The notes under the pieces are model-generated. The model ran no database searches, was not told the origin of the DNA, and saw only the letters and a program-made list of their open reading frames with translations. From the IMG/VR virus record IMGVR_UViG_3300045988_139374, positions 32,001 through 96,000 of that record: a DNA stretch of 64,000 bases; one strand, 5' to 3'. The DNA comes from a virus. The translations under genes and the position numbers were made by a program. Position 1 is the first letter of the stretch, and every line of letters starts with the position of its first letter. Of this stretch, positions 17,782 through 63,101 are shown piece after piece.

Positions 17782-17805
17782 GGTCTAGAGAGAAATCTCT
17801 AGACC
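17782..17805 (+). terminator. Terminator, copy 2 of the exact repeated hairpin
   Basis: ggtctagagagaaatctctagacc followed by a T-run. Confidence 0.7.
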
Positions 17806-21080: not shown

Positions 21081-21104
21081 GGTCTAGAGAGAAATCTCTA
21101 GACC
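21081..21104 (+). terminator. Terminator, copy 3 of the exact repeated hairpin
   Basis: ggtctagagagaaatctctagacc followed by a T-run. Confidence 0.7.
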
Positions 21105-21136: not shown

Positions 21137-21148
21137 AGATATTATAAT
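21137..21148 (+). promoter_or_regulatory. Early promoter-like motif AGATATTATAAT
   Basis: Exact 12-mer. Followed by the perfect palindrome atccactagtggat at 21153-21166. Confidence 0.55.
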
Positions 21149-21312
21149 AATGATCCACTAGTGGATATATTATATTCTGGAGGTATAAAATGAAAAAATA
21201 TGATGTTTATGGTCCATAGATTATGTAAATTTTTATGCATATCGGAACTATAAATTACAGCATGGAAACATACTGGAGTACAATTTTCAATCAAAAAAGG
21301 AGATAAACTACT

Positions 21313-21930: not shown

Positions 21931-21966
21931 TCCATTATTCCTAAGCATTGGTAGTATAATTTAAAA

Positions 21967-32791: not shown

Positions 32792-32810
32792 AGTAAACTC
32801 TCCTTTGGTT

Positions 32811-32823
32811 ATATATTATAAAA
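32811..32823 (+). promoter_or_regulatory. Degenerate early-type motif upstream of polB
   Basis: atatattataaaa followed by the hairpin aataga/tctatt. Near-palindromic, so it could also serve the divergent minus-strand gene. Confidence 0.3.
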
Positions 32824-32913
32824 ATGATCAATAGAGAAATCTATTAATAGAAAGTGTAAAATTTCAAAAAGTATATACGATTTGACTTAATATTAATTGG
32901 AGGTATCTAAATT

Positions 32914-34470
32914 ATGCAAGACAATGAAAAAAGTAAAAAGAAATCTTTTATAGTAAATAATGAACAATTTGAATTATTAATCCCAGGATATCCAAAAGGT
33001 TCTGATATTACAGTTATTAATACTTCTTATATTCCTAGAAAAAAGAATGATGATGGAACGTATCAAAAGGATTATATTGTAATTCTATTTAGAGACAATA
33101 TAACTGGTGGTAAAAAAGTTCATGTGATTCAAGAACCTTTGTATACTTTCTATAGAATCAAAGATGAAAGTCAAATTCCTAATTATACAATGTTCTTCAT
33201 TGAGAAAGAAAAGGTAGTTCCTTATACTTGTAAATATGCAAATATTCTGAAAGCAATTGCTGAGGTTACTGGAAGAATTGATGAGTTTCTTGAAAATGTA
33301 AACAATGGTCAGTATAGTGAGAATAAAAAACTTCATACAGATCCTAGTATATTCATGTCTGATATTCAGATTGAGAATTATTATAGATTTCTGTTTAATC
33401 TATCTTACAAGAATGAAGTTTTTAAACTTACTAAGGGATTTCTAGATATTGAAACTGATATTGCATATTGTCTAAATCAGTTTCCTGAACCTGGTGAAGT
33501 TCCTATTAATGCAATAGCTTATTGCGATGAAGCTCACAATACAGTGTATCAGTTTATATTAAATGATAGAAATAATCCTTTGGTTGAAGAGTATATGCAT
33601 TATACTGATAGACCTGGGTTCCAGAAAGAATTGTATGATTTCGTTGTAAATGCTGTAGGTGGATATAAGAAAGCTGTTAAATTCGGAGTAGATAAGATGG
33701 AATATAAACTTATCTTCTTTGATGACGAATATGAGCTTATTAAAACAGCATTTAAAATCATCAAAGCTACAGTTCCAGATTTTATTGAAGTCTGGAATAT
33801 GGCATTCGACTTGAATTATATTATAGAGAGAATTAAAGTTCTTGGCCATGATGAAACTGAAACTATATGTGATGGAAGATATCCATATTCATTTTTGAAA
33901 TTCTATGTAGATGAGAGAAACAAGAATAACTATGAAGAACGTGGTGATTACGTTGCCGCTTCTATGTATACTGTTTGGCTCGATCAGATGATCGAATTTG
34001 CATCTAGAAGAAAAGGTAGAGGCAGATATCAGAGTTTTAAACTGGATGCAATTGGTGAAGTTGTAGCTGGTGTTAGAAAACTAGATTATTCTCATATTAC
34101 TACTGACTTAGGTAAGCTTCCATATATTGATTTTAAAACATTCTCGTTCTATAACGTAATGGATGTTATTGTTCAGAAATGTATTGAAGCTAGTACTAAT
34201 GACCTTGAATATGTGTTTACTAAATGTCTAGTCAATAATACTAACTATGCGAAATGCCATAGACAGTCTGTATATCTTGCAAATCGATTCTGTAAAGACT
34301 TTTATGAATATGGATATGTAATCGGTAATAATAAAAATCTTTGGAATGAAAAGCCTACTACAAAATTTCCTGGAGCTATGGTTGGTGATCCAACTCATAA
34401 TGCAGATAGTGTAATGCTTCACATTAATGGTAGGCCAACTCAGTTGTCAAATAATGCTGTTGATTTCGAT
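32914..34470 (+). CDS. Family-B DNA polymerase, exon 1 (N-terminal and 3'-5' exonuclease domains)
   Basis: Exo I FLDIETD, Exo II VWNMAFDLNYI, Exo III YNVMDVIV. The frame ends at ..AVDFD immediately before the expected SLYPS. Confidence 0.85.
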
Positions 34471-34859
34471 TAACTAAGTAGTCGCATCTTTATAGGAATA
34501 TAGAGATGAAAACTTTATTGCAAAAGCTGGAAAAGGCTAAAGCTCTTCTGCCATTAGAAATAATGGAATCGAAAGATAGAAATAAGTGAAGAGATGGACC
34601 AAGGTGAAATAAAAGCTATATATTGAATAAGAGATAAATATATAGTCCTAAAGTCTATTAACAATGTCTAATCAGCACCTAGATAATTCTAGAGTTCAAC
34701 GACTATTCCGAAAGGAATTAGGGCCAAGTGGTACCGAAGTATAAAGGGTCCCAATGCTTATATAAGTAATGGATTGTGATATAGTCTAGCCTCTAGGTAA
34801 CACCTAGAGAAGTTCATAAGAGAACTGCAAAGATTAACGACCTTTGTGAATAAACTGCG
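34471..34859 (+). mobile_element. Group I self-splicing intron (ORF-less) in polB
   Basis: gttcaacgacta at 34694-34705 (R) and gatatagtc at 34778-34786 (S). Exon cgat can pair with intron gtcg. Intron ends in G. Splicing gives VDFD-YSSLYPSII (motif A). Confidence 0.85.
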
Positions 34860-35952: not shown

Positions 35953-35979
35953 AGGGTAGAGGAATAAATCCTCTACCCT
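35953..35979 (+). terminator. Terminator, copy 2 of the second exact repeated hairpin
   Basis: agggtagaggaataaatcctctaccct followed by a long T-run. Confidence 0.7.
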
Positions 35980-36011: not shown

Positions 36012-36025
36012 AACATCCATATAAT
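36012..36025 (+). promoter_or_regulatory. Late promoter-like motif AACA-N6-TAAT
   Basis: AACATCCATATAAT, 27 nt upstream of the ATG of the 36052 gene. Confidence 0.5.
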
Positions 36026-36051: not shown

Positions 36052-38391
36052 ATGGCAAATGATAAAAATGCCAATCAGAGAAAGATCAATAATTCTCTAG
36101 ATTTGCTAGATCGTCAGGTCAATGACCTATACAGAACTACATATTCAACAACTAATACATCTGAAGAACTTAAATCTCAGCTATCTGATAAACTAGATGA
36201 TGCTATCAAGAAGTCTACACAAGAGGATGGAGATATCCAGAATCTTTCTAATACTTCTAAGATTATTATGAAGCTTATGAAGCCTGAAAATAATGGAGCT
36301 TCTAATAAGCTTAATAAATCTTTCGGTAAAGGTGTAGGAGATGATATCTCTGTTCTGTTTAACAATGCTGGTGTCCAGGCGTCTTTAATGGATACTTATG
36401 CAAAGACTAAATGGATCACTGAGCTTGATAATGAATTTGATCTAATCTGCAAATATATGCCTAAGTTACAAGCAGCTCTAGATATTAAGAGAGATGCAGT
36501 TCTTTGTTCTGATTTTTATACTAAAGAATTTCTTAATATAAGACCTAGATATGAAAATCCTACATCCTCTGCAAATGCTGCTATTTCTAGCAATATCGAA
36601 GAAATGGTTAAGAAGTATGATCTTTCCAATAGAGCAGAAAAATGGTATGACAATACTTCTAAGTATGGCGAACAATTTGTTTACTGTGTGCCTTATTCTT
36701 CAGCATTCCAAGAGCTTCTAAGGAGAAAGAATAATACTGGATACACTGCAACAATCCAGCATGAATCTACTATTTCTTCTAATAAAAATAGTAAGCCTAA
36801 TGTAACTGCAAATGCTGTAGTAAATGAAGCCGGTGAGATTTCTATTAAGGTTAACTTTGATACTTCTAAGGTTATTATAGAAGCTGTAGAGAAAGAACAA
36901 TATGTACGAAAAAATAGAGCTGCTGTAAATCCTAAATTTAGAGGATTGTCTGAATCTTTTATCATTACAGAATCTAATGATAAATTTGAAGATCATCTGA
37001 AAAAGAATGGTAAATCTACAGAAGTCAATTTTGATAATACAATTGGAGATACCATTGATTGGGAAGATGATAAGACAGCTGCAAATGGTCTAGTGGATCC
37101 TAATGGAACCGATTCTACTGCTAAGATTAGTCTGAATGGTGCAGTTCTTACTGATATTAAGCATGATAGAATTATTCCTATTTATATTGAGGATACAATA
37201 TTTGGCGGCTATTATATTAGATATAGTGAAGATCAGGATATCGATATCAATTCTATTGATAATATCACTGGATATAATTCTGTAACTGGAATGTTTGATA
37301 ACGGTCCTATTGGTGCTCAATCTTCTAATTATGATGAAGACGAAGTAAATAATAAGGATATGCTTCTAAGATCTCTAGCAGCAAATATTTCTGATAAAAT
37401 TGACTCTGCATTCATTAATGCAAATGCAGATCTCAAGAAAGAGTTGTATTTGCTTCTAAAGTTTAATGATAAATATAATCAGCTTGCTCATACTCCTGAT
37501 TTGGATATTGTATTTATTCCTGCAGATGATATTCATCATTTGAAGTTCAATGACGATCCTATTACTCATAGAGGAATTAGTGATCTTTGGAATTCGCTAG
37601 TATCTGCTAAGCAGTGGATTATGCTTAATACAACTTCTGTATTGGGATGGACTACTAGAGGCTTTGATCGTAGAATTTACTATGTGAAGCAGTCTCTAGA
37701 CACTAATGTCGCACAATCTCTTCTGAATGTTATTAGTACTATTAAGAAGGGCAATTTTGGTATTCGTCAGATGGAATCTGTTAATAATATTCTTAATATG
37801 GTTGGCAGATTTAATGACTTTGTTATTCCTGTTGGACCTAATGAAGATCCTCCGATTCGGTTTGATACTCAATCTGGTCAGCAATTTGATTTTCCTCAAG
37901 ACTTAATGGCAAATCTAGAAGAATCTGCTGTTAATGCAACTGATGTTCCTCTAGAAATTGTTAATAGTTCTACTGGTATGGACTTTGCAGTTAGATATAC
38001 AATGACTAATGCAAAGCTTCTCCGTAATGTCTTGAAGAGGCAAGCAAAGATGGAAGCATTCCTAGCTGATATCTTTACTAAGATTTATAAGTTCGAATAC
38101 AATGAAGATGTAGAGCTTACAGTCAATCTTCCTATTCCTGCTTTCTTGAGTATGACTCAAGGATCTCAGCTACTTCAGAGTGCTACTCAGTATGCTGAAT
38201 CTATTACTGATATTGAAATGAATGGCGAGCAAGATGAAGCTAAGAATGCATTCAAGAAACTTGTCATTCGTAAGCTAATTCCTTCTTATCTGTCTGATAA
38301 GGACATTGAAGAAATTAAGAATATTATCAAGATTGATAATAATATTACTAGCAGTGAAAATGGATTGAGTGCAGAAGATCTAGCAGACTAA
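36052..38391 (+). CDS. Large late protein (779 aa), possible portal or other virion protein
   Basis: Preceded by a late-type motif and a strong RBS. The function guess rests only on size and context. Confidence 0.3.
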   Translation: MANDKNANQRKINNSLDLLDRQVNDLYRTTYSTTNTSEELKSQLSDKLDDAIKKSTQEDGDIQNLSNTSKIIMKLMKPENNGASNKLNKSFGKGVGDDISVLFNNAGVQASLMDTYAKTKWITELDNEFDLICKYMPKLQAALDIKRDAVLCSDFYTKEFLNIRPRYENPTSSANAAISSNIEEMVKKYDLSNRAEKWYDNTSKYGEQFVYCVPYSSAFQELLRRKNNTGYTATIQHESTISSNKNSKPNVTANAVVNEAGEISIKVNFDTSKVIIEAVEKEQYVRKNRAAVNPKFRGLSESFIITESNDKFEDHLKKNGKSTEVNFDNTIGDTIDWEDDKTAANGLVDPNGTDSTAKISLNGAVLTDIKHDRIIPIYIEDTIFGGYYIRYSEDQDIDINSIDNITGYNSVTGMFDNGPIGAQSSNYDEDEVNNKDMLLRSLAANISDKIDSAFINANADLKKELYLLLKFNDKYNQLAHTPDLDIVFIPADDIHHLKFNDDPITHRGISDLWNSLVSAKQWIMLNTTSVLGWTTRGFDRRIYYVKQSLDTNVAQSLLNVISTIKKGNFGIRQMESVNNILNMVGRFNDFVIPVGPNEDPPIRFDTQSGQQFDFPQDLMANLEESAVNATDVPLEIVNSSTGMDFAVRYTMTNAKLLRNVLKRQAKMEAFLADIFTKIYKFEYNEDVELTVNLPIPAFLSMTQGSQLLQSATQYAESITDIEMNGEQDEAKNAFKKLVIRKLIPSYLSDKDIEEIKNIIKIDNNITSSENGLSAEDLAD

Positions 38392-39393: not shown

Positions 39394-41298
39394 TTAAGAA
39401 TTGTCACTGGTAGTATCAGTAACACCAGGGATCGGATTAGAGGACGGAGATCCCTCAACAGCAAAGACGTCAAAGACCTCAGCCTGCGGGAAATCTCTAT
39501 AATAGCAATACAGAGATGCATTGAAAATCTTATTAGCAGTCTGCACATCATCCTTAGTATAAACCAGAGTGATAGACTTAAAGAACTGCTCATACTTAGA
39601 AACGACGTTGTCCTGAATCAGATCCTTATACTTGCCGAAGTCAGTTGCATCGGGCTCCATCAGCATAAAGCGAATGGTAGGAACATAACGACGAATTGCC
39701 TTAACAACACGCTGTGTAACCAGAACATTGTTGATGTAAGACAGAGGACCATTATGATCCTGAGAAGTATAAGTGGACTGAATTGCTAGCTGACGATCAG
39801 CAGTCAGATTAACAAAGTTAACCTTCAGATCATCCAGAACCTGCTTCTGATCATAGTCAGGAGTAACACGAGGAATGATATTCAGAGTGCCCTCAATTGC
39901 ACTAGTGATGATGAAGTTGTTGAACTCACCAGCAATAGGTGCAGCAATATTGGTGCTATAGTGATTGACCAGCAGAGGAGCCAGATCATATCCCATAGTA
40001 ACACGAATTTCCTTATGAGAATACTCATCCAGGACATCATAGACAGACATATAGTCACCCACAAAGCAGCTCTGATTCCAACCAGAGCCAGCATCAAAGA
40101 GCAGCTGCACATCTTCTAGAGTCTCAATATTCAGACCTAGATCACGGAAATAGAAGAAGTCTTCCCGGAAATCCGCAAGAGATACGATTTGCCCCTTAAC
40201 ACTGAGAGGATAGTTGGCGTCAACACAAAAGTCAATCTTATGCTGATCCAGATCGAAGATCTCATCAGAGAACTCACCAGAGAAGAACTTAACTGCCTCA
40301 GCAGCCCACTCATCAGTAGCTGCTTCACCAGGGAACGGAGCATCACCAAACTTGCCGTTGCTACCAGACATCAGAGACATACCATAAACACTGGTAAGAT
40401 CCATGCCAGTATCATCAACACGAATGGTAGATAGAGCCTTACCCTTCAGAGAGCAACCGAACATGGGATCGATCTTATAAAGCTCATCAACAGTATAGCC
40501 AGTAACCTCAGCAACCTTTGCCAGGAATGCTTCCATACCGATATCATCTTGACCAACAATCAGCTGATCCATGGTACGGTTAGTCAGAAGCATGTTACGA
40601 CGCTCACCATTGACAGTATTAACTGCCTCAGGGTAAATAGAGAAACGCTGAGTCTCAACGATATCCTCATCCTCGACACTCATGATCTTATACAGCATAT
40701 AAGTCAGACGTCTAGAAGAAGTATAATCGGGAACAATACGTAGTTTCTTAACAGACTTGCCACGACCATTATCACAGACAACAAACAGAGGGAAGACTGT
40801 ATCAGTCTTCATAGCATCTGCCTTCTTCTTAACTTCTGCATAGGTCTTAGCATTCTCAACAGTCATAGTGGAATACTTAATCTTTGCAAAATTAGTCGTA
40901 GCAGGAGTGCCAGTGACCTCAGTAGTCTCCTTACCATGCTCATCAAGATACAGAGGCTTACCATCAGCAGAAGTCTTATTCTCCTTACCAGCAGTAATTT
41001 CAGCAGTGATGACTAGGTTAGCCAGAGTAGCATCTTCTGCAACAATACGCTTGCCCAGAACACGACCACCGGCCTTCAGGATTCTATGTGCTTCGAGCAG
41101 GGGCTGGCCATACTTAAAGAAGTTAGGAGTCTCGCCATACTCTTTCACAAAGTCATCATATACGTAATCAGTAATTTTCTCTGTGCCTTTGTCGGAGGAA
41201 AAGGCACACAGAAACAACGGCAGAGAGTCATCAGTCGAAGAAGCAGTACCCTTCGGCATTAGCACTTCATGCCAGTTAACTGTCATTCCAGCATACAT
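39394..41298 (-). CDS. Candidate contractile tail sheath protein
   Basis: 634 aa, high-expression codon usage. ...LKAGGRVLGKRIV segment resembles the sheath N-terminal GG..(V)..R(V) pattern. Followed by a tube-sized gene. Confidence 0.55.
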   Translation of the reverse strand: MYAGMTVNWHEVLMPKGTASSTDDSLPLFLCAFSSDKGTEKITDYVYDDFVKEYGETPNFFKYGQPLLEAHRILKAGGRVLGKRIVAEDATLANLVITAEITAGKENKTSADGKPLYLDEHGKETTEVTGTPATTNFAKIKYSTMTVENAKTYAEVKKKADAMKTDTVFPLFVVCDNGRGKSVKKLRIVPDYTSSRRLTYMLYKIMSVEDEDIVETQRFSIYPEAVNTVNGERRNMLLTNRTMDQLIVGQDDIGMEAFLAKVAEVTGYTVDELYKIDPMFGCSLKGKALSTIRVDDTGMDLTSVYGMSLMSGSNGKFGDAPFPGEAATDEWAAEAVKFFSGEFSDEIFDLDQHKIDFCVDANYPLSVKGQIVSLADFREDFFYFRDLGLNIETLEDVQLLFDAGSGWNQSCFVGDYMSVYDVLDEYSHKEIRVTMGYDLAPLLVNHYSTNIAAPIAGEFNNFIITSAIEGTLNIIPRVTPDYDQKQVLDDLKVNFVNLTADRQLAIQSTYTSQDHNGPLSYINNVLVTQRVVKAIRRYVPTIRFMLMEPDATDFGKYKDLIQDNVVSKYEQFFKSITLVYTKDDVQTANKIFNASLYCYYRDFPQAEVFDVFAVEGSPSSNPIPGVTDTTSDNS

Positions 41299-41381: not shown

Positions 41382-41395
41382 ATTATTGTAATGTT
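41382..41395 (-). promoter_or_regulatory. Late promoter-like motif AACA-N6-TAAT
   Basis: Minus strand reads AACATTACAATAAT, 84 nt upstream of the sheath ATG. Confidence 0.55.
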
Positions 41396-41437: not shown

Positions 41438-42220
41438 TTACATAGTGATGACTCTTTCTAGAGGACTCTCTTTATGAGTTCTCTTACCAGATTTTTCTTC
41501 ATCTGACAACAAGACAGCACTCATAATAGCTTCATCAAGATTCTCAGATGTCAAAGAAACAAACGGAGAAATATATTTAGAAGCTTCTTTGATTGAAATA
41601 GAAGTATATCCAGTCATTTTAGAATTAGCAGTTTTAGACAATCTAAAAGGAGTAGATATATCTTCAGGATCTCTACAGATCTTAGAATACAATAGTCCCA
41701 TTGCTTGAGCATGAATTTTGTATGTACCAGAATTCAATGCCATGCATTCAAATGGATATTGATATAATTCATTATAAGGAATAGTATTAGGAATTCTACC
41801 AGTCTGGATATGAAGTCTAAACAATTCTGCTAGATTATCCATATCTTGTTCAACATGGCAACGAGTAATTAGTTGATCGTCTTTATAGAAAATTAATACC
41901 CTATAATCAGAAGGATCTAGACCAGTATCAAGTTGAACATCCTTACGCTTTTCAATCTTTCCAGGACGGCAAAGGAAAATAGTAGGAAAATTAAATGCTC
42001 GTAGTTTACTAGGAGATCCATTAGCTGCGATAACTCGATAGTTAAAAGATCCCATTAGTCTTACATATGCTCCTTCAACTGTTGCTGAAGTAGATTTACC
42101 AGAACCAAAATAATCCTCAGGAATATAATATTCCAAAGAACCATCTTGATTAAATAGTAATGCATCTTCTTCCCTTCGTGCGAAAGGAGGAATTTCAGTA
42201 AATTTAAATGTTAGTGCCAT
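41438..42220 (-). CDS. Hypothetical late protein
   Basis: ORF with RBS aggagg, in the structural block. Confidence 0.55.
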   Translation of the reverse strand: MALTFKFTEIPPFARREEDALLFNQDGSLEYYIPEDYFGSGKSTSATVEGAYVRLMGSFNYRVIAANGSPSKLRAFNFPTIFLCRPGKIEKRKDVQLDTGLDPSDYRVLIFYKDDQLITRCHVEQDMDNLAELFRLHIQTGRIPNTIPYNELYQYPFECMALNSGTYKIHAQAMGLLYSKICRDPEDISTPFRLSKTANSKMTGYTSISIKEASKYISPFVSLTSENLDEAIMSAVLLSDEEKSGKRTHKESPLERVITM

Positions 42221-42241: not shown

Positions 42242-42255
42242 ATTATAAACAAGTT
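42242..42255 (-). promoter_or_regulatory. Weaker late-type motif (AACT-N6-TAAT)
   Basis: Minus strand reads AACTTGTTTATAAT. Confidence 0.3.
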
Positions 42256-43869: not shown

Positions 43870-45231
43870 TCAATAGTTATTGCCCTTAATAGAAACACTA
43901 TGGGTATGCTGTGCGATGCTATGAGTATGAGCAGTCGGCTTAGTGTAGCTGTGGCTATGAGCAGCAACCTTAAGAGCATAGGTGAAGGTGTTAGTGGTCG
44001 GAGTAATAGTATGGCTATGAGCTCCAATAGTAACACTGTGGCTATGAGCAGCGATAGTAACACTATGAGAGTGGCCACCTGCAGAGGTAGTAGCAACAGT
44101 ACCAGCACCTGCAGCACTCAGAGTTGCACCGGTGACATAAGTAATAGTATCACCAACAGTTGCAGAGACACTATGAGTATGTGCACCTGCAGCACCAGTT
44201 ACAGAGACACCAGTAACAACAGACTTGGAGCCAGTAGCAACATTGACAGTATGGCTATGAGCAGCAATAGTAACACTATGAGTATGTGCACCTGCAGCAC
44301 CAGTTGCAGAGACACCAGTAACAACAGTCATAGAACCAAGACTCAGAATGCCATCAGCATAGCTTGCAGGAGATGCTGCAGTACCAGTACTAGGAGTGAT
44401 GCTATGAGAGTGACTACCAGCAGAGCTGGAATTAACAGTAGCACCGCCACCAGCACTTAGAGTTGCACCAGTGACATAAGTCAGAGTTGCAGTACTAGGA
44501 GTGATACTATGAGTATGATTGCCAGCGGAACCAGTTGCAGTACCAACAGCAGTAACAGGAGAAAGTGTTGCAGTTGCAACATTGACAGTATGGCTATGAG
44601 CAGCAATAGTAACACTATGAGTATGTGCACCAGCAGAAGTAGAAGTAATAGTAGCCGCACCAGCTGCTGCAGAAGTAACAGTAGCACCACCACCAGAACC
44701 AGTAACAGTAGGAGCACCTGCAGTATCAGTAATACTAACAGTAGTATCGATAGCACCACCAGCACCAGTGTTAGAAGCTGCACCTGCACCTGCAGAACCA
44801 GTTGCCGTAGCACCAGCAGTAGCTGCAGTACCACTTAGAGTAATCTGGCCCTTCTTAGCGTAATCAGTCAGGTCAGTTGCAGTGGTGCCAATCTTTTCCC
44901 AGACATACTGAACATAACCAGCAGCGCCAGTACTATCGGGGCCCTTATCAATAGTAACAAATTCAACATAGGTACCAGAAATACCACCATCATTAGCGAC
45001 GAGGTAAATCTTACCCATAGTACTAGCTGCAGCAGTGGTAGCAGGAGCACCAATAGCACCATCTCCAGCAGCTTCTTTACGAGCATTATCAGTTACAAGC
45101 TGAACGCCTGCATTAATCATATCAGCAATGTTTTGCCAAGTCTTCGGATTACCAGATCCGTCCTGGATGTACTTAGCATTAAGGTCATAAGATACGCCTT
45201 CGACCTTAATCTGTTTGATGTTATCAGCCAT
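43870..45231 (-). CDS. Tail-fibre-like protein with 13 HxH motifs
   Basis: A/T/G/S-rich repeats of the form AGAHTHSVTIAAHSHTVNVAT. High-expression codon usage. Its N-terminal domain is related to that of the 45421 gene product. Confidence 0.6.
   Translation of the reverse strand: MADNIKQIKVEGVSYDLNAKYIQDGSGNPKTWQNIADMINAGVQLVTDNARKEAAGDGAIGAPATTAAASTMGKIYLVANDGGISGTYVEFVTIDKGPDSTGAAGYVQYVWEKIGTTATDLTDYAKKGQITLSGTAATAGATATGSAGAGAASNTGAGGAIDTTVSITDTAGAPTVTGSGGGATVTSAAAGAATITSTSAGAHTHSVTIAAHSHTVNVATATLSPVTAVGTATGSAGNHTHSITPSTATLTYVTGATLSAGGGATVNSSSAGSHSHSITPSTGTAASPASYADGILSLGSMTVVTGVSATGAAGAHTHSVTIAAHSHTVNVATGSKSVVTGVSVTGAAGAHTHSVSATVGDTITYVTGATLSAAGAGTVATTSAGGHSHSVTIAAHSHSVTIGAHSHTITPTTNTFTYALKVAAHSHSYTKPTAHTHSIAQHTHSVSIKGNNY
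44237..44292. repeat. 56-nt exact direct repeat, copy 1 (inside the fibre gene)
   Basis: gcaacattgacagtatggctatgagcagcaatagtaacactatgagtatgtgcacc, identical to 44576-44631. Confidence 0.85.
44576..44631. repeat. 56-nt exact direct repeat, copy 2
   Basis: Identical to 44237-44292. Encodes the repeated AHTHSVTIAAHSHTVNVA unit. Confidence 0.85.
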
Positions 45232-45298: not shown

Positions 45299-45312
45299 AT
45301 TATTAGAATGTT
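45299..45312 (-). promoter_or_regulatory. Late promoter-like motif AACA-N6-TAAT
   Basis: Minus strand reads AACATTCTAATAAT, directly after the upstream terminator and 68 nt before the ATG. Confidence 0.55.
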
Positions 45313-45420: not shown

Positions 45421-46803
45421 TTACTTGACAGTAACAGTAGAGGTCTTCTTGGTGACAACGGGAGTGATGGTCTCCGTAGCAACAGTAATAGTACCATTGG
45501 GAGCCTGTGCATCCTCGGTAGTAGCAACAGTAGGAGTGACAGACTTCTTGGTGCCAGTAAAGGCAGCAGTGAAGGTAGGCTGAGTAACAATAGCTGCAGT
45601 AGTCTCGGTAGCAATAGTAGTACCCAGAACAGCACCAGTACCAGTGAAGGTAGCCTCACCATTGTACTCTGCCTTAGCAGTAGCACCAGTTGCAACTGCA
45701 ACAGTAGAGGTACCAAAGGTGGGCAGTGCACCAGACAGCTTCGGAGCAGTGTAGGTAACTGCACCAGCAGCGGTGACAGCAGCAGCATAGAATGCAGCAT
45801 CATCAGTAGCAGTGGTATAGCTCAGACTCAGAGACTCCTCAGTCTTATCAACACTGAACTTAACACCCTTCTGAACGAAAGATGCAGTAGCATCAGCAGC
45901 CTTCTCAACCTTGCCATCAGTCATAGTATAACCAGTACCAGCATCGGTAACAGTTGCAACATCAGCAGTGTTCAGGGTAACAGATGCATTCAGAGCAGGC
46001 AGAGCAACCTTACCAGCAGGTGTATAGTTTGCAGTGTGAGTCTCATCAGCAGCAGTAGCAGCGATAGTAACACTAGCAGTCTTTTCGTAAGTTGCAGCTG
46101 CATTTGTGTCCTGAGTCACAGTAACAGCGCCAGCAGGAGTAACATCCAGAGCAGAGTAAGTCTTAGGAACTGCAACAGTAGTACCATCCAGAGTATACTC
46201 GCCAGGCTTAGCAGTGGTCAGATCAGCGATCTTGTCGAAGACCTCAACAGTGCCAGCTGCAGTATCCTTATGAGACAGAGCCTTCAGGTTCAGAGCCGTG
46301 GGGCCTTCCAGCTCCTCAGCAGTGATATTATCCTGCAGATCAATACCAGCAATGGTAGTGGTCTTTGCAACATAAGTCTTAGCAGCAGTAGCAACAGTCA
46401 GGTGAGTAGACTGGTCACCCAGCTCTTCCCAAGCAGTGCCATTGTAAATATACTCCTTAGAGTTATCCTTCATGACAACAACGTCACCGGAAACAGGCTC
46501 AGCAACAGCAGCAGCAATTGCCTCCAGATCAGTCTGGCCCTCAGTACGATTAATAACGCCACGGAAGTGCATTGCACCTTCCAGAGATGCAACCTTCTTC
46601 TTAACGTATGCTGCAACTGCACCTTCAGTAGGCAGGTTAACGCCTTCCTCGGTCAGCTCAACAGACACGTCCTTATAAACGGCGTCATGGAAACCTTCAA
46701 CAACCTTACGAAGGTCGGCATCCTTAACGAAATAGACTTCAGAACCGACTGTAATCTTCTTAAGGGTATTGGCATTATCATAAGTAGGATTAATAGCAGC
46801 CAT
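45421..46803 (-). CDS. Ala/Thr-rich fibre or decoration protein
   Basis: High-expression codon usage. N-terminal domain ends ...EYIYNGTAWEELG, which parallels ...YVWEKIG in the 43870 product. Confidence 0.5.
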   Translation of the reverse strand: MAAINPTYDNANTLKKITVGSEVYFVKDADLRKVVEGFHDAVYKDVSVELTEEGVNLPTEGAVAAYVKKKVASLEGAMHFRGVINRTEGQTDLEAIAAAVAEPVSGDVVVMKDNSKEYIYNGTAWEELGDQSTHLTVATAAKTYVAKTTTIAGIDLQDNITAEELEGPTALNLKALSHKDTAAGTVEVFDKIADLTTAKPGEYTLDGTTVAVPKTYSALDVTPAGAVTVTQDTNAAATYEKTASVTIAATAADETHTANYTPAGKVALPALNASVTLNTADVATVTDAGTGYTMTDGKVEKAADATASFVQKGVKFSVDKTEESLSLSYTTATDDAAFYAAAVTAAGAVTYTAPKLSGALPTFGTSTVAVATGATAKAEYNGEATFTGTGAVLGTTIATETTAAIVTQPTFTAAFTGTKKSVTPTVATTEDAQAPNGTITVATETITPVVTKKTSTVTVK

Positions 46804-47668: not shown

Positions 47669-49747
47669 TTAATCAGTAAAAGCAAAAGAAAGTTTAAATT
47701 TATTGATAGTAAGAGATTCACTAGTATACCAGACATTGAAATCAGTTTCAGTACCCGGATCCCAATAAACCTTCTTCTCCCAACCATTGATTTGTTCAAA
47801 TCCATTCGGATCTTTGATAGATTGAATATCTCCTAGATCTTTTCTATAAGCAAATACCAGATGCTGATCATTTGCGGTATATTTATGAGAAGTACCTTCA
47901 GTGATCAGAGTCTTATCTTCAATTTCTTCCTTCTCCAAGTTATCGATATTGGTAGGAATAGAATCAGAGACACCGAAATAAACGCACTTAACAGGATCCG
48001 GAGTATCAGGAGCAATGATCATGTTCATAAACTCATCAAATGTAGTTCCCTTAGGAATTACTTGACCTTGCTTCAAAGCACCAATAGGAACGATAACAGT
48101 AATATCTTCATTGATAGATGCTTCAGCAATAGAGCTAATGACATTATTCTCATCAATAGTAATATTCTTACCAGGAGTCAGCTTATCTTGCTTAGTCTTC
48201 AGCTGATCATTTAGATACTTATTAACCAGCGGAGAAACAACATCTTCCAGATGTTCATTCAAGTAATCAGTAACCTGATCTCCAGCCATGATATTAATGT
48301 AAGTAGCTAGATCAATAGGATAACTTACAGACAACCAAGCATACTTATCATCTAGAGTAATATCAGTTTCTCTATCATAAGCATGAAGTTTCTTATACTG
48401 ACTCTGAACTTTAGAATCAAAAGGTTCAAACTTACCTAGAGTGGTAAATTGAACTTTAGCGCCCATGTCAAGTTCACCAGTAGAAGAAATCCAGTCGCCC
48501 AGAATAGTTTCTCCATCATAAGAGTCAATATATTCAACTCTACGGAAAACACCAACTTCTCCATCCTTGACCATAATACAGTCAGCAACTAGCTTATCTC
48601 CCTTAACAGTGAGATTAGGCTTAGCAGCTTCAGTCTTAGTAGGAACAGCTCTCAAAACAACTGGTTCTTTAAAGATCAGAGTCTGATCTTCAGGTTCAGA
48701 AGGAGAAGTAATATCAATCCTCTTTAGATTAACACTCTTAAATCTCTTAATATCGGTATATCCAAAAATACGAAGGTCAATAGGGCCGATGACAGTATTC
48801 AGCAGTTCAGGATTCTGACCCATAAAGAAATTGGTAACCGCTACAGAGTTACCTCTTGCAAGCATTGCACCAAACTCTTCTTCATCACCAGTAAATCCAT
48901 TTTCTACTGCATATTCATAAGCAGACTTACCATCGTCACCAGGATTACCCTGCTTTCCAGGATCGCCCTTGTCTCCCTTAGTGCCAGCAGCAATTTTTCC
49001 TAGATACTGATAACCAGTAATGGTCTCCTCAATATTAGAATTATTCTGGCAGCACTTGCAAGTACACTTACTTACAGTAGAATCGCCAGTTCTAATATAT
49101 AGATCAGAAACAGGATCATTCAAAACAGCCACAAACTTGCCACGAGGAATAGTATTCTTCTTAGCTTCTGCTTCTTCAATAGATTCAAAGACGCAATAGA
49201 CTTCGAAATTAGCAGCTTCTCCCTTTTCGCCCTTAAGAGATGCTAGCCATTCATCTTCTGTTCCTTCATATCCCATAGCTACTGCACATTCATATGCAGA
49301 AGGACCTTGGGATCCAGTAGCAGCTTTCCAAGTAATACCATCAAGGCTATACTGAAATACACCAGCTTCATTTTCTCTAACAAGAGTAATCTTCTGACCA
49401 TCGTTTTCAACACTACATACAGGATTACTAATAGTGTCAGATGTAGCAAGAATAGTGATATCCAGAACATCACTGGGTTGAACATAGATAACCTTACCAG
49501 AATATTCCTCAGATCCGTCAATCTGAAGATAGGCACTAGTTCCCATTGCTCCAAGAGAGGAATTATAATTAACACCAATCTTAGATACAATGCCAGTAAT
49601 GACATTCTTTTCACCATTTAGCTTATAGAAACATTCAACTTTGTCACCAGTTTTTACAGTGACAATTTTAGAAACTCCACTATCAAAGGTTAGTGAAAAC
49701 CTCAGATTAGGGAGAATGGTATATTTATTGTCAAGCAACATGGCCAT
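47669..49747 (-). CDS. Tail fibre protein with short collagen-like tract
   Basis: GDKGDPGKQGNPGDDGKSAYEYAVENGFTGDEEEF and GSQGPSAYECAVAMGYEGTEDEWLASLKGEKGE. Start taken at ATG 49747; a TTG at 49750 is also possible. Confidence 0.6.
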   Translation of the reverse strand: MAMLLDNKYTILPNLRFSLTFDSGVSKIVTVKTGDKVECFYKLNGEKNVITGIVSKIGVNYNSSLGAMGTSAYLQIDGSEEYSGKVIYVQPSDVLDITILATSDTISNPVCSVENDGQKITLVRENEAGVFQYSLDGITWKAATGSQGPSAYECAVAMGYEGTEDEWLASLKGEKGEAANFEVYCVFESIEEAEAKKNTIPRGKFVAVLNDPVSDLYIRTGDSTVSKCTCKCCQNNSNIEETITGYQYLGKIAAGTKGDKGDPGKQGNPGDDGKSAYEYAVENGFTGDEEEFGAMLARGNSVAVTNFFMGQNPELLNTVIGPIDLRIFGYTDIKRFKSVNLKRIDITSPSEPEDQTLIFKEPVVLRAVPTKTEAAKPNLTVKGDKLVADCIMVKDGEVGVFRRVEYIDSYDGETILGDWISSTGELDMGAKVQFTTLGKFEPFDSKVQSQYKKLHAYDRETDITLDDKYAWLSVSYPIDLATYINIMAGDQVTDYLNEHLEDVVSPLVNKYLNDQLKTKQDKLTPGKNITIDENNVISSIAEASINEDITVIVPIGALKQGQVIPKGTTFDEFMNMIIAPDTPDPVKCVYFGVSDSIPTNIDNLEKEEIEDKTLITEGTSHKYTANDQHLVFAYRKDLGDIQSIKDPNGFEQINGWEKKVYWDPGTETDFNVWYTSESLTINKFKLSFAFTD

Positions 49748-49769
49748 CAACCAATCCTTTCTTTATGAT

Positions 49770-49783
49770 AATTATTATAAAGT
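49770..49783 (-). promoter_or_regulatory. Weaker late-type motif (AACT-N6-TAAT)
   Basis: Minus strand reads AACTTTATAATAAT, 23 nt upstream of the fibre gene ATG. Confidence 0.35.
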
Positions 49784-49794
49784 TTACGAGCAAA

Positions 49795-49822
49795 TGCCGG
49801 TAGGATCTACTCATCCTACCGG
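49795..49822. terminator. Strong hairpin in the 230-nt intergenic region
   Basis: 11-bp stem gccggtaggat/atcctaccggc. The flanking T-runs are weak on both strands. Confidence 0.4.
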
Positions 49823-49981
49823 CAATGCATAAAGTTTTTGAAAGGAGTAAACAAACGAAGGAAAACAAAAATCAACGCAATCGAAAACCACCGTGACCAG
49901 CACATTAACAGCTAGGGAAAACAATAATTTGGAGGCACAAATCTCATGGCAGAAGAAATTTGCTTTATTTTCGTCCAGCTA

Positions 49982-51181
49982 TTACTTAAATGTTACATTT
50001 CTTTCTAGCAGATTGTTCATACATTCACGAAGATTTGCAACAAAAGTATCATAGAAAATCTTATCCTTAGCATTGATAGAATGATAAGCTCTACCTCTAG
50101 GATTAATACGATCAATTGCAATAATATTACGAATAAAATAATACATAAAAGTATGTTCTGCCATATTATCAGGATTCATATTGCAACAATACTTACAATA
50201 TGCAAGGCAAATCATCATAGCCTGATCTTTAGTAAACTCAGTTAGATGGCGAATAATGACATCGGGGCAAGTACGAATATCATTAATGATAGCATCATTA
50301 GTTTCATACTTATGGATGAAAGAATCATAAACTCTATTAGGCTTCTTCATCTCAATGGACTTAATCTTGCAATGCTTGCAGAATTCTTTAAATTCATCAA
50401 GATTAAAAGCTTTATCGATATTATCTCTAATAGCTTCTAGATTCTTTACCATTACATCATTGCCATTATTCTTAGCAACTACGATAGCATTGTTAATCTG
50501 ATCCTTACGTTCGTCATCAAAGCTAAGCATCAAATCACCAATCTGAGTTGCCATATCATCTGCAATATTAGCAGTATCTTTAGTAAATCCAGAAAATAGA
50601 GTATCAAGATCAACAGTCTTCTGAGAAGACTTTTTATATTCTTCTACATATTCATCAATTAGCATCTTAGCAACTTGATTCTTATGGAGAATTCTATTGC
50701 TAGGAACACCAACAGTATTTGCATTAGCCATAATCTGGCTTACAGTGTTCTGCATAAACTTAGGCATGTTGGAATAATAGTCAATATTATTACCAGCAAT
50801 TCTATTAGCCATTAGATATGCAATCTTAGAAACTGCATCTGCTTCAGGAATTTTATCTTTACAAGAATCAAGGAAATTATTCAAATCAGCATTTAGATCA
50901 GGAGTTTCATCATTGATCATAGCATCAAAATTTTCAAGATTCTTCTGCTGAATTTCTTCAATAGAAGTTTCAGTATCAATTACATTATAACTTCCAGTAG
51001 CAGGGTTATAAGAACCAAGAACCTTTTGAGGTTTAGATTCTTCTTTCTTTTCATCTTCAGAAATAGTATTCATTGCATTTACTGATTCTTCGATATTATT
51101 TACATTCTCAAGAATCTTAGGTGCAGATTCAGGTGTAGCATTTAGAAGATTTTCATATTCCTTATCAATATTAGTAGACAT
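49982..51181 (-). CDS. Hypothetical late protein
   Basis: ATG at 51181 follows aaaaggag. The longer ORF-track start at 51247 overlaps the upstream gene. Confidence 0.55.
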   Translation of the reverse strand: MSTNIDKEYENLLNATPESAPKILENVNNIEESVNAMNTISEDEKKEESKPQKVLGSYNPATGSYNVIDTETSIEEIQQKNLENFDAMINDETPDLNADLNNFLDSCKDKIPEADAVSKIAYLMANRIAGNNIDYYSNMPKFMQNTVSQIMANANTVGVPSNRILHKNQVAKMLIDEYVEEYKKSSQKTVDLDTLFSGFTKDTANIADDMATQIGDLMLSFDDERKDQINNAIVVAKNNGNDVMVKNLEAIRDNIDKAFNLDEFKEFCKHCKIKSIEMKKPNRVYDSFIHKYETNDAIINDIRTCPDVIIRHLTEFTKDQAMMICLAYCKYCCNMNPDNMAEHTFMYYFIRNIIAIDRINPRGRAYHSINAKDKIFYDTFVANLRECMNNLLERNVTFK

Positions 51182-51203
51182 TAATATTCTCCTTTTATAT
51201 AAA

Positions 51204-51995
51204 TTACTTAATAGGCTCAATATCTCCACCAATCTGCTGAAGTGCAAGCTTAATATAAGTCATAATATCAGCAGAATCAGGAGAATTCAATACAAAAGTC
51301 TGATAGAAATTTCTGAAAAATCCACCAGTAGGATCAGAAACAATACTAGCAATATATGGTGCTAGTGTAGGTGCTTGATTACTATAAACAATGCTTAGAA
51401 TATTATCTAGAGAAATATTAAAAGAATCAATCTGATTAATTACATAATCGATATTACAGTGAATAGCTGCAAGTACAGGATCTTTAAATAGCTTCTTAGA
51501 ATAGCTATAGGTAGCATCGTTCTCTTTTCTAAGTTGAGAGAAATTAAATGCTGAATTAAGAGCATCTTTCTCTTGAATTAGATACATAGCATAAAACATT
51601 TTTAGATGCTCAGAAAAAGAAGATACAAAGAAATCATATAGCCAAAATGCCGCAGAATACAATTCAGTATCTTCATGAGGATTAAAACTCAATCCATAGA
51701 AATTACAGATCTTATTGATGATATTCAGATAAGTCTTATTTCTAGTATTGATAATATCAGGATTATTTGCACCAAATCCATCAGACAGATTTTTAAACGT
51801 CAATTCATAAGCATATACTAGATTAGGATTAGAAGCTTGATATGGATTAAATCTATTATTCAATGCATTATCAAGAGCATCGAGAATATAATCGTCTCCA
51901 AATTGACCAAGAATACCTGCTAGTTGATTATCAATATTGACATTTGTTACTGCAGGATTATACTGGAAAGGTGTACCATTAAATTCAACGGCCAT
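51204..51995 (-). CDS. Hypothetical late protein
   Basis: ORF with RBS ggaggag. Confidence 0.55.
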   Translation of the reverse strand: MAVEFNGTPFQYNPAVTNVNIDNQLAGILGQFGDDYILDALDNALNNRFNPYQASNPNLVYAYELTFKNLSDGFGANNPDIINTRNKTYLNIINKICNFYGLSFNPHEDTELYSAAFWLYDFFVSSFSEHLKMFYAMYLIQEKDALNSAFNFSQLRKENDATYSYSKKLFKDPVLAAIHCNIDYVINQIDSFNISLDNILSIVYSNQAPTLAPYIASIVSDPTGGFFRNFYQTFVLNSPDSADIMTYIKLALQQIGGDIEPIK

Positions 51996-52043: not shown

Positions 52044-52057
52044 GATTACTATCTGGT
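52044..52057 (-). promoter_or_regulatory. Weaker late-type motif (AACC-N6-TAAT)
   Basis: Minus strand reads AACCAGATAGTAAT. Confidence 0.25.
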
Positions 52058-52102
52058 TAATAAATTATTTATATTTTAATTTAAATAAATCAAAAATTAA
52101 AA

Positions 52103-54086: not shown

Positions 54087-54680
54087 TTATTCATCTTCCA
54101 TTACAATATTATCGTAGTTTTCTTCATCATCATAAGATTCCTCTTTTTTAATCTCTGCAGGATGAAGATCGTCTCCTTCCGCATCTGCTCCATGCTTCTT
54201 ATAATATTCAATAGCTTCTTGCTCTGCTTGTATTCCATAATGAAATCCATCATAAATGATAGTAATGTATTTATTATATAGCAAATCAAAGATTTCATCT
54301 GAATTAAAAGCTGTCATAATAGCAATGTCAATAGGACAAGAAGAATCATAAATGCCACTATGATTAGAATTTAGATTAAGCCATCCATACCCATCTTTTT
54401 CAATCTTAGATTTTACTTCTTTTATAATATATTCTTCTACATTGTCTTTAAATACTTGAAAATCAGACATAGATATTAGAATGCAATTTCTAATAGTTTC
54501 GTCATTATTACATTCACTTAGAATAAATTTATATAGCTCACCATTTTTATCAAATACTATTTTCTTATAATTATTACTAATCTTCTTTCTATATTTATAT
54601 ACAATAAAAGCTATAATCAATATAATTGATATAATAATTAATAATACAATCTTACCTTGTTTATTCGGGCTAATAAGCAT
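54087..54680 (-). CDS. Membrane-anchored protein with acidic C-terminus
   Basis: N-terminal TM helix (IVLLIIISIILIIAFIV). RBS aaaaggag. Confidence 0.55.
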   Translation of the reverse strand: MLISPNKQGKIVLLIIISIILIIAFIVYKYRKKISNNYKKIVFDKNGELYKFILSECNNDETIRNCILISMSDFQVFKDNVEEYIIKEVKSKIEKDGYGWLNLNSNHSGIYDSSCPIDIAIMTAFNSDEIFDLLYNKYITIIYDGFHYGIQAEQEAIEYYKKHGADAEGDDLHPAEIKKEESYDDEENYDNIVMEDE

Positions 54681-54715: not shown

Positions 54716-54729
54716 ATTAAATAAATGTT
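54716..54729 (-). promoter_or_regulatory. Late promoter-like motif AACA-N6-TAAT
   Basis: Minus strand reads AACATTTATTTAAT, 36 nt upstream of the ATG at 54680. Confidence 0.5.
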
Positions 54730-54782
54730 TTTGTATTTTTGAAACCTTAATATTAATAACTAAAGAAAGGAGAAAGATATAA

Positions 54783-55007
54783 ATGGTTATTCAAAATCCA
54801 TCAACTCCAATTACTGTTTATTATCAAGATAGTACCACTAATCAGAGTTTTATGAATATGTATTATTTTCTTAAAGCTCGTGGTATTAAGAATAATAAAT
54901 TCTTTTTGTTGTTGTATGATGGTGGATTAATGGGCGTAGACCCAAGGGACCCAAATCTACCTAAACCAATGAAGATGCGCGTTCTTCGAGAATGCATGGT
55001 TAACTAT
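54783..55007 (+). CDS. terL: Terminase large subunit, exon 1 (3' boundary uncertain by a few nt)
   Basis: A 75-76 codon ORF ending ...RECMVNY(W), followed by intron-like sequence. Continues logically into ...FIRELCRIP (compare T4 gp17 VYFAETYCAI). Confidence 0.7.
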
Positions 55008-56230
55008 TGGTAAACTAAGAAATGCCCCTCATTATGGTGACATAGTGTTGAATGCTATTGAACTGCTGGGAAAGGCTAAAGCTCTCTTACCTACAATCAG
55101 GTGTCGAAAGACAGAAACAAGTAGAGAGATGGGTCATGGTGAAATAAAAGCTTATTATATTTCTATCCCTATTATAATAAGTCCTAAAACCTAAAATCAA
55201 TGTCTAATCAGCAACCAACAAACTTATATTAATCTATTTCAATTTTACTAGGAGGGTTAATATGAGTACCAACGGCAAACCTTTAAACGATATTACTGGA
55301 AAGATTTATCACAGTAACAATTGTGGAGATTTTGAAATCTTAGGTGAGATCGAGTATGTAGGAAAAGAGATTCATACAAGTCCATCAAATACAAGATATG
55401 CTTTGAGATTCCTGAATACAGGATATGTAACTGATGCATCACTAGATGCAATTAGACATGGAAGAGTATATGATAGATATACTCCAAATGTTGCTGGGGT
55501 TGGATATATTGGAACAAATATGATTATCAGTGATCCATATCCTTGCCAGTTTTATAAAGCTTGGAACGATATGATGAATAGATGCTATAATAAAGCTGAT
55601 AAAGATTATCCTTTATATGGAGGCATCGGAATCACAGTAGATCCTAGATGGCATAACTTCTCTACATTTATGCTTGATGTTCCATTTCTTCCGCTTTACG
55701 AAAAGAAGTTAATGTATCCTTCTATTTATCAACTTGATAAAGATTTTCTACAAATTCATGTTCCTAAAAATAAAAGAATTTATTCTAGAAATACATGTAT
55801 GTGGTTATCAAAACTTGATAATGTTTTAATGATGTCAAAAGATCGTGATATTAAAGATGGTAATCCATATGTAGGTGTAGTCTATTCTCACAATTGCTGG
55901 AAAACTGTAATAAATGGAGCAGTCTATGGAAAATTTAATGATCCTAAAGCTGCTGCAAATCTTTTCAATTATTTATATCCAAAGCTTAAAGGACCTTTTA
56001 ATGATATCACTATTCTAAATAATGTAGAATATATTCCATTAGAAGAATTGTCGAAATATATTGTTGGTTCAACGACTATCCAAACTGGAGTAGAGCCGCC
56101 TAAAACGGTTCGAAGTAATAGCACACCTCCAATTAATTTTACAGCTACAATTGGAGATGAAGATATAGTCTGAGCTTATGTAACACATAAGATTAACAAG
56201 CGTTAATATATAAAAAATAACGCAGGTACG
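55008..56230 (+). mobile_element. Group I intron in terL carrying a homing-endonuclease-like ORF
   Basis: The 5' part (55065-55213) is clearly homologous to the polB intron (34526-34677). gttcaacgacta at 56067-56078 (R) and agatatagtc at 56161-56170 (S). The ORF sits in a loop closed by aaccaacaa (55213-55221) and ttgttggtt (56061-69). Exact splice sites not resolved. Confidence 0.8.
55262..56173 (+). CDS. Intron-encoded homing-endonuclease-like protein of the YGGRGI family
   Basis: WNDMMNRCYNKADKDYPLYGGIGITVDPRW.NFSTF and YQLDKD...YSRNTCMW match the free-standing paralogs. RBS aggagg. The last codons overlap the ribozyme R and S elements. Confidence 0.7.
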   Translation: MSTNGKPLNDITGKIYHSNNCGDFEILGEIEYVGKEIHTSPSNTRYALRFLNTGYVTDASLDAIRHGRVYDRYTPNVAGVGYIGTNMIISDPYPCQFYKAWNDMMNRCYNKADKDYPLYGGIGITVDPRWHNFSTFMLDVPFLPLYEKKLMYPSIYQLDKDFLQIHVPKNKRIYSRNTCMWLSKLDNVLMMSKDRDIKDGNPYVGVVYSHNCWKTVINGAVYGKFNDPKAAANLFNYLYPKLKGPFNDITILNNVEYIPLEELSKYIVGSTTIQTGVEPPKTVRSNSTPPINFTATIGDEDIV

Positions 56231-63087: not shown

Positions 63088-63101
63088 ATTATTTGAATGT
63101 T
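63088..63101 (-). promoter_or_regulatory. Late promoter-like motif AACA-N6-TAAT
   Basis: Minus strand reads AACATTCAAATAAT, in the 35-50 nt gap between two minus-strand genes. Confidence 0.55.

Follow-up and report, generated by a model that had tools for sequence, protein, structure and literature searches.

The DNA considered here is a 64,000-nucleotide stretch of a viral genome, referred to throughout as 'the window', that corresponds to positions 32,001 to 96,000 of the IMG/VR record IMGVR_UViG_3300045988_139374. It comes from a metagenomic scaffold of 269,204 bp (ENA ERZ28595964). The G+C content of the window is ~33%. The genes that it carries include those for the major capsid protein (1158-2912), the tail sheath (39394-41298), a tail fibre, further tail and virion proteins and the large terminase, together with those for an anaerobic ribonucleotide reductase, UvsX, an NAD ligase, SbcC, a family B DNA polymerase and three RNA polymerase (RNAP) subunits. 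Judged by this gene content, the window belongs to a jumbo phage that encodes its own multisubunit RNA polymerases. Our subject is a short element, AACA-N6-TAAT (N6 being six unspecified nucleotides), that lies in front of several virion genes, for example on the minus strand at 41382-41395, ahead of the sheath gene. An earlier note on this DNA likened the element to the late promoter of phage AR9, and suggested in addition that the genome contains deoxyuridine (dU). As we describe below, the motif very probably belongs to the late promoters of a jumbo phage that is a distant relative of AR9, with the consensus AAC(A/T)-N6-TAA; the proposal of a dU genome is not supported by what we find.

No close nucleotide match to the window was found by megablast, using 8 kb of it, among 50,697 phage records. 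The nearest cultured phages by tblastn are PBS1/AR9, the Staphylococcus S6-like jumbo phages, Yersinia phiR1-37 and Listeria LPJP1, at identities of only 26-37%. The sheath and capsid proteins lead to a large uncultured clade (558 homologous sheath clusters). Loci for comparison, with protein identities of 43-99%, were taken from IMG/VR and ENA, and are numbered 'L' below. They include L161, a contig that matches the left end of the window at 93-99% identity, and L162 and L163, which are near-identical genomes.

Distribution and conservation of the motif

AACA-N6-TAAT occurs at the five places listed in the earlier note, with coordinates and strands exactly as given there: 36012-36025 on the plus strand, and 41382-41395, 45299-45312, 54716-54729 and 63088-63101 on the minus strand. 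All five sites are intergenic, and all are oriented like the gene downstream. A sixth exact copy (49981-49994, minus strand), not listed in the note, overlaps the stop codon of the gene at 49982-51247. Across the whole window, chance alone would give 6.8 matches, and the observed 6 are equalled or exceeded in 72 of 100 shuffles. The picture changes in the intergenic DNA, 8.4% of the window: here 5 matches stand where 0.60 are expected, and none of 2000 dinucleotide-preserving shuffles of the spacers reaches 5. The earlier note had proposed just this comparison of intergenic frequency with shuffled sequence, and the frequency proves to be clearly above. Because the excess is intergenic, the orientation uniform and the window as a whole without excess, the signal is positional rather than one of general over-representation. 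Three weaker sites of the form AAC(T/C)-N6-TAAT also exist as the note said, two of them one base away from where it placed them. It overlooked an AACT-type site before the capsid gene, the broader consensus AAC(A/T)-N6-TAA, and sites before replication genes.

The decisive evidence for reading these sites as putative promoters is their conservation across relatives. Upstream of the sheath gene, AACA-N6-TAA is kept in the window and in seven relatives (49-78% protein identity) in which the flanks have diverged. AACAT-N5-TAAT is kept before the virion gene 36052-38391 in the window and six relatives, and AACT-N6-TAA before the virion gene 41438-42220 in the window and five; a further relative, L134, has AACA-N6-TAA at the same place. 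In all 14 relatives displayed for the capsid gene (43-97% identity), AAC(T/A)-N6-TAA precedes the gene, mostly at ~100-170 nt from the start codon. The intergenic region before the fibre gene cannot be aligned in L008, yet it contains AACATTTTAGTAAA. The motif was taken in the earlier note for a signal of late genes, and it is indeed retained before the orthologous late genes of diverged relatives.

Counts bear this out. At each of seven loci, the upstream spacers contain 4-9 sense matches to AAC[AT]-N6-TAA where 0.5-2.2 are expected (P<=0.004, by shuffling); antisense matches over the seven number 2 in total. In a broader test, covering 14 loci and 250 spacers (25.8 kb), this dyad was ranked among 252 of matched composition, obtained by permuting A,A,C,W on one side and T,A,A on the other in every way, at gaps of 3-9. 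It came first, with 80 sense and 12 antisense matches (mean for the 252, 15.5; standard deviation, 10.7), and the runners-up were shifted forms of the same motif. Further preferences, outside the search pattern, appear among the 97 distinct sites from 17 loci: 88 of the 97 have A at position +2, 60 have T at -7, and none has C at -2. Position -8 is divided about equally between A and T (50/47). The 5' untranslated region (UTR) implied by the sites has a sharp peak of length at 27-30 nt. As read from these comparisons, the consensus of the clade is AAC(A/T)-N6-TAA, a recognisable variant of the AR9 consensus.

RNA polymerases, early-type motifs and terminator-like hairpins

In AR9, 118 non-early start sites have been mapped (Lavysh et al. 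2017, PMC5312081). Ninety-four of these follow A(-11)ACA-(6N)-T-A/G(+1), and 17 are variants, AACT and AACC among them; 5' UTRs are mostly 20-40 nt long, and the early consensus is AAATATATATTAT-(6N)-G (PMC5312081). Because the AR9 consensus came from mapped start sites, the motif is defined independently of the window. The likeness claimed in the earlier note is borne out by the match to A(-11)ACA-(6N)-T-A/G(+1) (PMC5312081); the 'TW' form that it quoted is that of the Korn preprint. The features in common are an AAC-containing tetranucleotide at -11 to -8, a 6-nt spacer, and T(-1)A(+1), as in AR9 and PBS1, the starts in the window being assumed; AACT and AACC variants, and short UTRs of ~25-30 nt, in the window and AR9 alike; some genes in each that carry both early and late-type signals; orthologous beta-N and beta-C subunits, and a subunit of the gp226 family; and the gene order GroEL-x-gp226. 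There are also differences. Position -8 is A in all 94 canonical AR9 sites, in contrast to the even split of A and T here; +2 is unconstrained in the 23 AR9 promoters checked, whereas here it is A in 91%; -7 prefers A in AR9 and T here; and AR9 transcripts start with A or G, whereas the consensus here was drawn from A starts only.

The non-virion RNAP holoenzyme of AR9 comprises gp105, gp089, gp270, gp154 and gp226. The beta C-terminal subunit of this enzyme, the orthologue of gp089, is encoded in the window at 15498-17771 (plus strand; phrog_3295, E 1e-100; 29% identity to g089), in the order UvsX-x-x-gp089 that the window and AR9 have in common. The beta N-terminal subunit, the orthologue of gp105, is encoded at 22714-24666 (plus strand; phmmer E 1e-39; BLASTP 28% over 422 aa). 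Orthologous to gp264, which is annotated as a virion RNAP subunit in AR9, is a virion RNAP beta C-terminal subunit encoded at 61001-62236 (minus strand; 37% identity over 98% of the length), itself a late gene in the operon downstream of the motif at 63088. The split beta and beta-prime genes reported in the earlier note are thus established in part: the beta pieces are identified, and the beta-prime gene is unconfirmed in the window.

Promoter specificity in AR9 resides in gp226, a sigma-like fifth subunit (PMC9209446; 2020 review). No gp226 was found in the window by tblastn, phmmer or an 11-sequence hidden Markov model (HMM), and hhalign was negative for the 501-aa open reading frame (ORF) at 5311-6816; two word-indexed homology searches for gp226 did not reach this phage. 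An exhaustive HMMER search for the family gave 510 clusters across all lineages. With a profile built from 144 of its members, each clade locus that extends far enough shows a match, in an ORF 7-8.5 kb upstream of the capsid gene; E values for complete ORFs are 1e-81 to 1e-95. In L161, this gene encodes 524 aa (HMM E 6e-96), 22.5% identical to AR9 gp226. It lies ~6-7.6 kb to the left of the window, has an early-type promoter of its own in front, and stands after GroEL and one small gene, the same order as in AR9 (g228-g227-g226).

The early motif, [T/A]AGATAT[T/A]AT-N6-G, stands ahead of genes at nine places in the window (6835, 14489, 17831, 21136, 26456, 30299, 30807, 53561 and 58294). All nine copies are on the plus strand and all precede non-structural genes; the observation in the earlier note, that the late genes lack the early 12-mer, holds. 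The motif has the ATAT(T/A)AT-N6-G form of the AR9 early promoter, which in AR9 is read by the virion RNAP. Hairpins resembling intrinsic terminators are enriched (26, against 9.6 expected), and some stand immediately before the late-type motif. The terminator at 35953-35979 ends 33 nt before the motif at 36012, that at 42287-42261 ends 5 nt before the motif at 42255, and that at 45358-45329 precedes the motif at 45312.

Interpretation and alternatives

The motif, its bias in position and strand, its conservation and the enzyme genes are there to be observed, and we would explain them as follows. Early in infection, the phage would make its own non-virion multisubunit RNAP, composed of split beta and beta-prime pieces and the sigma-like subunit of the gp226 family. 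This enzyme would bind the AAC(A/T) element, centred near -10, and would start transcription at the first A of TAA, six nucleotides downstream of it. It would thereby make the mRNAs of the capsid and tail genes, the other virion genes and the virion-RNAP genes, the commonest 5' UTR length being ~27-30 nt, and each unit would typically begin just past the intrinsic terminator of the unit before.

Several points weigh against this account. The transcript starts at the sites, the strand that is read, the recognition of bases and the late timing are inferred. Taken over its full length, the window shows no excess of the exact motif, and the loose AR9 pattern, AACA-N6-T(A/G), occurs there 64 times, mostly within genes. 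When the 94 canonical AR9 late promoters are made into a weight matrix, intragenic matches score as high as the intergenic sites; the information content of the matrix is too low. An unguided Gibbs sampler, applied to 12 late upstream regions, settled first on the 3' arms of terminators and gave an AAAACAT signal only as its second solution, and so is of no use as stand-alone evidence; counting dyads of all kinds in the full set of upstream spacers brought up mainly Shine-Dalgarno sequences, terminators and T-runs. Some late-looking genes with a spacer of their own (e.g. 45421-46803) have no clear site, and some sites precede replication genes (NrdD and DNA polymerase), so that the class is not strictly 'late'. 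Finally, little of the 2.1bis helix is conserved in the gp226 homologue, which has K in place of Y210, and the details of recognition may differ from those in AR9.

The question of uracil turns on one part of gp226. In AR9, the template-strand U at -10 is held in a pocket formed by gp226 (V206 and I207) and gp105 (R363 and K375) (Fraser et al. 2022, PMC9209446). V206 would clash with the 5-methyl group of a T at this position; in the V206G mutant, T serves as well as U; and no gp226 homologue from a dU phage departs from the valine (PMC9209446). In the phage considered here, the aligned segment reads NNQGIWVKQ, against YSDVVIWTY in AR9, an alignment given by MAFFT L-INS-i and hmmalign alike. 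I207 and W208 are kept; Gly stands in place of V206, and Lys in that of Y210. Ten members of the clade have Gly (7), Thr (2) or Val (1) at this position, and the 144 family representatives include 81 with Val, 11 with Ile, 8 with Thr and 6 with Gly. The phage itself lacks the valine that gates against thymine. In the gp105 orthologue, R436 corresponds to AR9 R363, and D448, adjoined by K447, aligns with K375. Because the specificity subunit has Gly at the V206 position, we predict that it accepts thymine and does not depend on uracil for recognition. The requirement for uracil at -11 in AR9 depends on packing of the DNA backbone, and for this position sequence gives no basis for judging.

Two explanations that would do away with a phage-specific promoter are both very improbable, in our judgment. 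One is that the sites are -10-like (TATAAT-like) elements for the host RNA polymerase, equipped with its main sigma factor or with one encoded by the phage. TATAAT or a near match does lie within several of them (36012, 42242 and 49771), the spacers are AT-rich, and the motif, like the sigma-70 -10 element, is a short AT-rich element ~10 nt before the start; AR9 gp226 is itself structurally sigma-like (PMC9209446). What is conserved, however, is AAC at a fixed 6-nt distance and not a hexamer, and of the 97 sites only 54 have A, and 21 have G, where a -10 hexamer would have its invariant A. The core is AAC rather than TAnnnT, and there is no -35 partner: sigma-70-type matches, with two hexamers 16-18 nt apart, are not enriched (93, against 80 +/- 9 expected), and none among the matches listed overlaps the motif. 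AR9, moreover, reads the template strand (2020 review), and both AR9-type RNAPs, which in AR9 are described as reading the early and late promoters (PMC5312081; 2020 review), are encoded here. The other explanation, hardly to be preferred, is that the motif does not initiate transcription at all, being an RNA-level element (a processing site or part of a 5' leader) or a chance product of AT-rich spacers. The motif is certainly short and AT-rich, it has no whole-window excess, and the starts are deduced rather than taken from 5' ends. Against this stand 80 matches where composition-matched patterns average 15.5, a sense to antisense ratio of 80:12, and survival of the motif where the flanks have diverged beyond alignment. 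Many sites, furthermore, lie just past intrinsic terminators, where a new start is needed, and in AR9 this very pattern is a promoter mapped by experiment (PMC5312081).

A third alternative accepts the promoter and adds that, as in AR9, it is read only when the template strand contains uracil, the phage genome being dU-substituted. This was the further suggestion of the earlier note, and we think it unlikely. In its favor, the phages in culture that come nearest in RNAP and sheath similarity are PBS1/AR9, the Staphylococcus S6-like phages, phiR1-37 and Listeria LPJP1, and dU DNA is reported for PBS1/AR9, S6 and phiR1-37 (PMC5312081; Korn preprint). The AAC core is invariant, as it is in AR9, and the -10 pocket residues equivalent to R363 and I207-W208 are conserved. 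Gene content for this question covers ~85 kb (the window and ~20 kb of near-identical flanks) of a 269 kb genome. Within it, no genes for thymidylate synthase, dUTPase or dCMP/dCTP deaminase were seen, an absence that, for the first two, would also suit a dU phage, and that leaves no dU-pathway gene in evidence. No homologue of Ugi, a short and fast-evolving protein, was found there either, unlike AR9. Against a dU genome stands Gly in place of V206, here and in six others of the ten clade members, since the same change makes the AR9 enzyme accept T. Identity to the dU phages, besides, is 22-37% only. The dU extension is thus weakened. It is quite possible, if somewhat less than probable, that what we have before us is a large uncultured clade of AR9-like jumbo phages that have kept the AAC promoter and gp226 but have thymine DNA, a natural Gly opening the -10 pocket. 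Were this so, dependence on uracil would be a lineage-specific refinement and not intrinsic to the polymerase family, and it would be a puzzle how a phage with thymine DNA keeps from transcribing the DNA of its host, the motif being so short.

To return to the late promoter proposed here, a promoter of this type in a distant relative of AR9 is of a known kind, and unsurprising by itself. Here, all the same, comparative genomics of an uncultured clade yields a clear late consensus. Bioinformatics fails to predict the late promoters of jumbo phages that have their own RNA polymerases, according to the 2020 review, and for phiR1-37 and the Staphylococcus jumbo phages (S6, MarsHill, Madawaska and Machias) no late consensus was found by MEME or by transcriptomics (PMC5312081; Korn preprint). 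These phages otherwise resemble the present one in their RNAPs (26-29% identity) and in having an AR9-like early motif. phiKZ, too, is a jumbo phage with two multisubunit RNAPs; its sigma-like fifth subunit, gp68, is distantly related to gp226, and its thymine genome would be a further likeness if the DNA here contains thymine. Its late consensus, however, is only T(-3)ATG(+1), with no -10-like AACA element (2020 review), and the RNAP subunits here are closer to those of AR9 than to those of phiKZ-like phages. With the consensus AAC(A/T)-N6-TAA, operon maps and temporal classes should become feasible for many metagenomic genomes. The AR9-type -10-like element appears to have been conserved even though the specificity subunits share only ~22% identity, and the natural Gly at the uracil-enforcing residue of AR9 offers a probe of whether template-strand, uracil-dependent recognition is general or peculiar to Bacillus phages.

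Individual predicted promoters and neighboring genes

The exact sites are as follows. The predicted late promoter of the sheath gene, 39394-41298, is AACATTACAATAAT (41382-41395, minus strand), an exact match with a predicted start at A 41384 and a 5' UTR of 86 nt. That of the virion structural gene 36052-38391 is AACATCCATATAAT (36012-36025, plus strand), with a predicted start at 36023 and a UTR of 29 nt. On the minus strand, AACATTCTAATAAT (45299-45312) is predicted to serve the tail-fibre gene 43870-45231 with a UTR of 70 nt, and AACATTTATTTAAT (54716-54729) the gene 54087-54680 with one of 38 nt; the latter site is identical in L162 and L163, so that its conservation is seen at that near-identical distance only. 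AACATTCAAATAAT (63088-63101, minus strand) is predicted to drive an operon of a virion protein gene (62249-63064/63079) and the virion RNAP beta-C gene (61001-62236), and the AR9 orthologue of the latter, g264, has a mapped late promoter, too (PMC5312081). The start codon of the first gene of this operon is probably its second ATG, at 63064. This ATG is preceded by GGAGG, and the public gene call of near-identical L162 starts there (271 aa, rather than 276); the UTR is 26 nt from it, against 11 nt from the first ATG.

Further sites, most of them variants, are assigned to other genes as follows. The AACT variant AACTTGTTTATAAT (42242-42255, minus strand) precedes the virion structural gene 41438-42220, with a UTR of 24 nt, and AACTTTATAATAAT (49771-49784, minus strand), also AACT, is the predicted proximal late promoter of the tail gene 47669-49750, with a UTR of 23 nt; it is kept in L008, L130 and L131. 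The sixth exact AACA-N6-TAAT (49981-49994, minus strand), 233 nt upstream of the same gene, is a possible distal promoter, and is kept in L008 (AACATTAAAGTAAT) and L130 (AACAAAATAGTAAT). Some 190 nt follow this site on the minus strand within 49751-49994, ending in a hairpin right before the proximal promoter; this stretch could be a long leader or a small RNA, or could mark tandem promoters like the primary and secondary starts of AR9. An AACC variant, AACCAGATAGTAAT (52045-52058, minus strand), is a candidate late promoter for the gene 51204-51995, with a UTR of 52 nt. The predicted late promoter of the major capsid gene, 1158-2912, is the AACT variant AACTAATAAATAAA (1007-1020, plus strand), with a UTR of 140 nt. 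The ~140-nt leader of this gene (1021-1157) contains a block (...GTCACGTCCTTCA...) conserved in the relatives L135-L141, at 73-97% identity, and this may be a structured 5' UTR element that controls capsid expression.

Replication genes have sites of a similar kind. AACT-N6-TAAT at 8104-8117 (plus strand) precedes the anaerobic ribonucleotide reductase gene, 8168-10315, with a UTR of 53 nt. A GACT-N6-TAAT variant at 32884-32897 (plus strand) precedes the gene for the DNA polymerase exo-domain, 32914-34473, in a spacer that also holds an early-type motif (32809-32823), and may be a weaker or 'continuous-class' promoter; GACT-N6-TA is kept in this spacer in L008, L130 and L131, and L134 has the canonical AACA-N6-TAAT. 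The ligase spacer combines an AACT-N6-TA site with an early-type motif. These two spacers, each with both types of signal, recall the 'continuously expressed' class of AR9. The exact 12-mer CTTAATATTAAT occurs three times on the plus strand (8106-8117, 32886-32897 and 54746-54757), each time upstream of a replication or packaging gene: the reductase, the DNA polymerase and exon 1 of the terminase. Taken as xxCT-N6-TAAT, this 12-mer corresponds to the late-type motif, the bases at -11/-10 varying (AA, GA and AC), and the three sites may form a separate 'middle' or weak promoter class.

In the early region, the motif copy at 21136 points into a minus-strand ORF, 21142-21948; the real gene at this locus may be the plus-strand ORF 21313-21930. 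One 24-nt terminator hairpin, GGTCTAGAGAGAAATCTCTAGACC, with a T-run behind it, recurs unchanged after early-region genes at 13669-13692, 17782-17805 and 21081-21104, and is present in related IMG/VR contigs. As a probe, this repeat recovered 5 short loci only, and a scan of IMG/VR with the early-promoter 15-mer was flooded by unrelated AT-rich contigs. The 501-aa ORF 5311-6816 (plus strand) is unrelated to gp226 and has no PHROG or Pfam match. It occupies a variable locus: a 420-aa gene stands in its place in L161.

No tRNA genes occur in the window, and no Rfam family matches it at the gathering threshold. Three tRNA genes (Thr-TGT, Gln-TTG and Gly-TCC) lie ~5.5-6 kb to the right of the end of the window, at 4132-4513 of the L162 contig (95-98% identical), on the strand opposite to the adjoining late genes. 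Behind an early promoter, at 58362-60112 (plus strand), the gene for an RtcB RNA ligase is followed by one for an RF-1-domain (peptidyl-tRNA hydrolase-like) protein; the two may together serve RNA repair or ribosome rescue.

In the large terminase gene, exon 1 (54783-55013; 76 aa) is separated from the remainder (56324-58246) by an HNH endonuclease ORF (55262-56173). A sub-threshold Rfam match to a group I intron lies at 56016-56192 (25.5 bits; local E 5e-4), and the insertion is apparently absent from the L162 gene. Long non-coding stretches at 34474-34757, 55014-55261 and 10465-10774 interrupt or follow the DNA polymerase and reductase genes. The first two have sequence blocks in common (GGAAAAGGCTAAAGCTCT...GGTGAAATAAAAGCT), which suggests that they are related introns. 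The reductase gene of the close relative L161 holds an extra, HNH-containing insertion, and the window has seven HNH genes.

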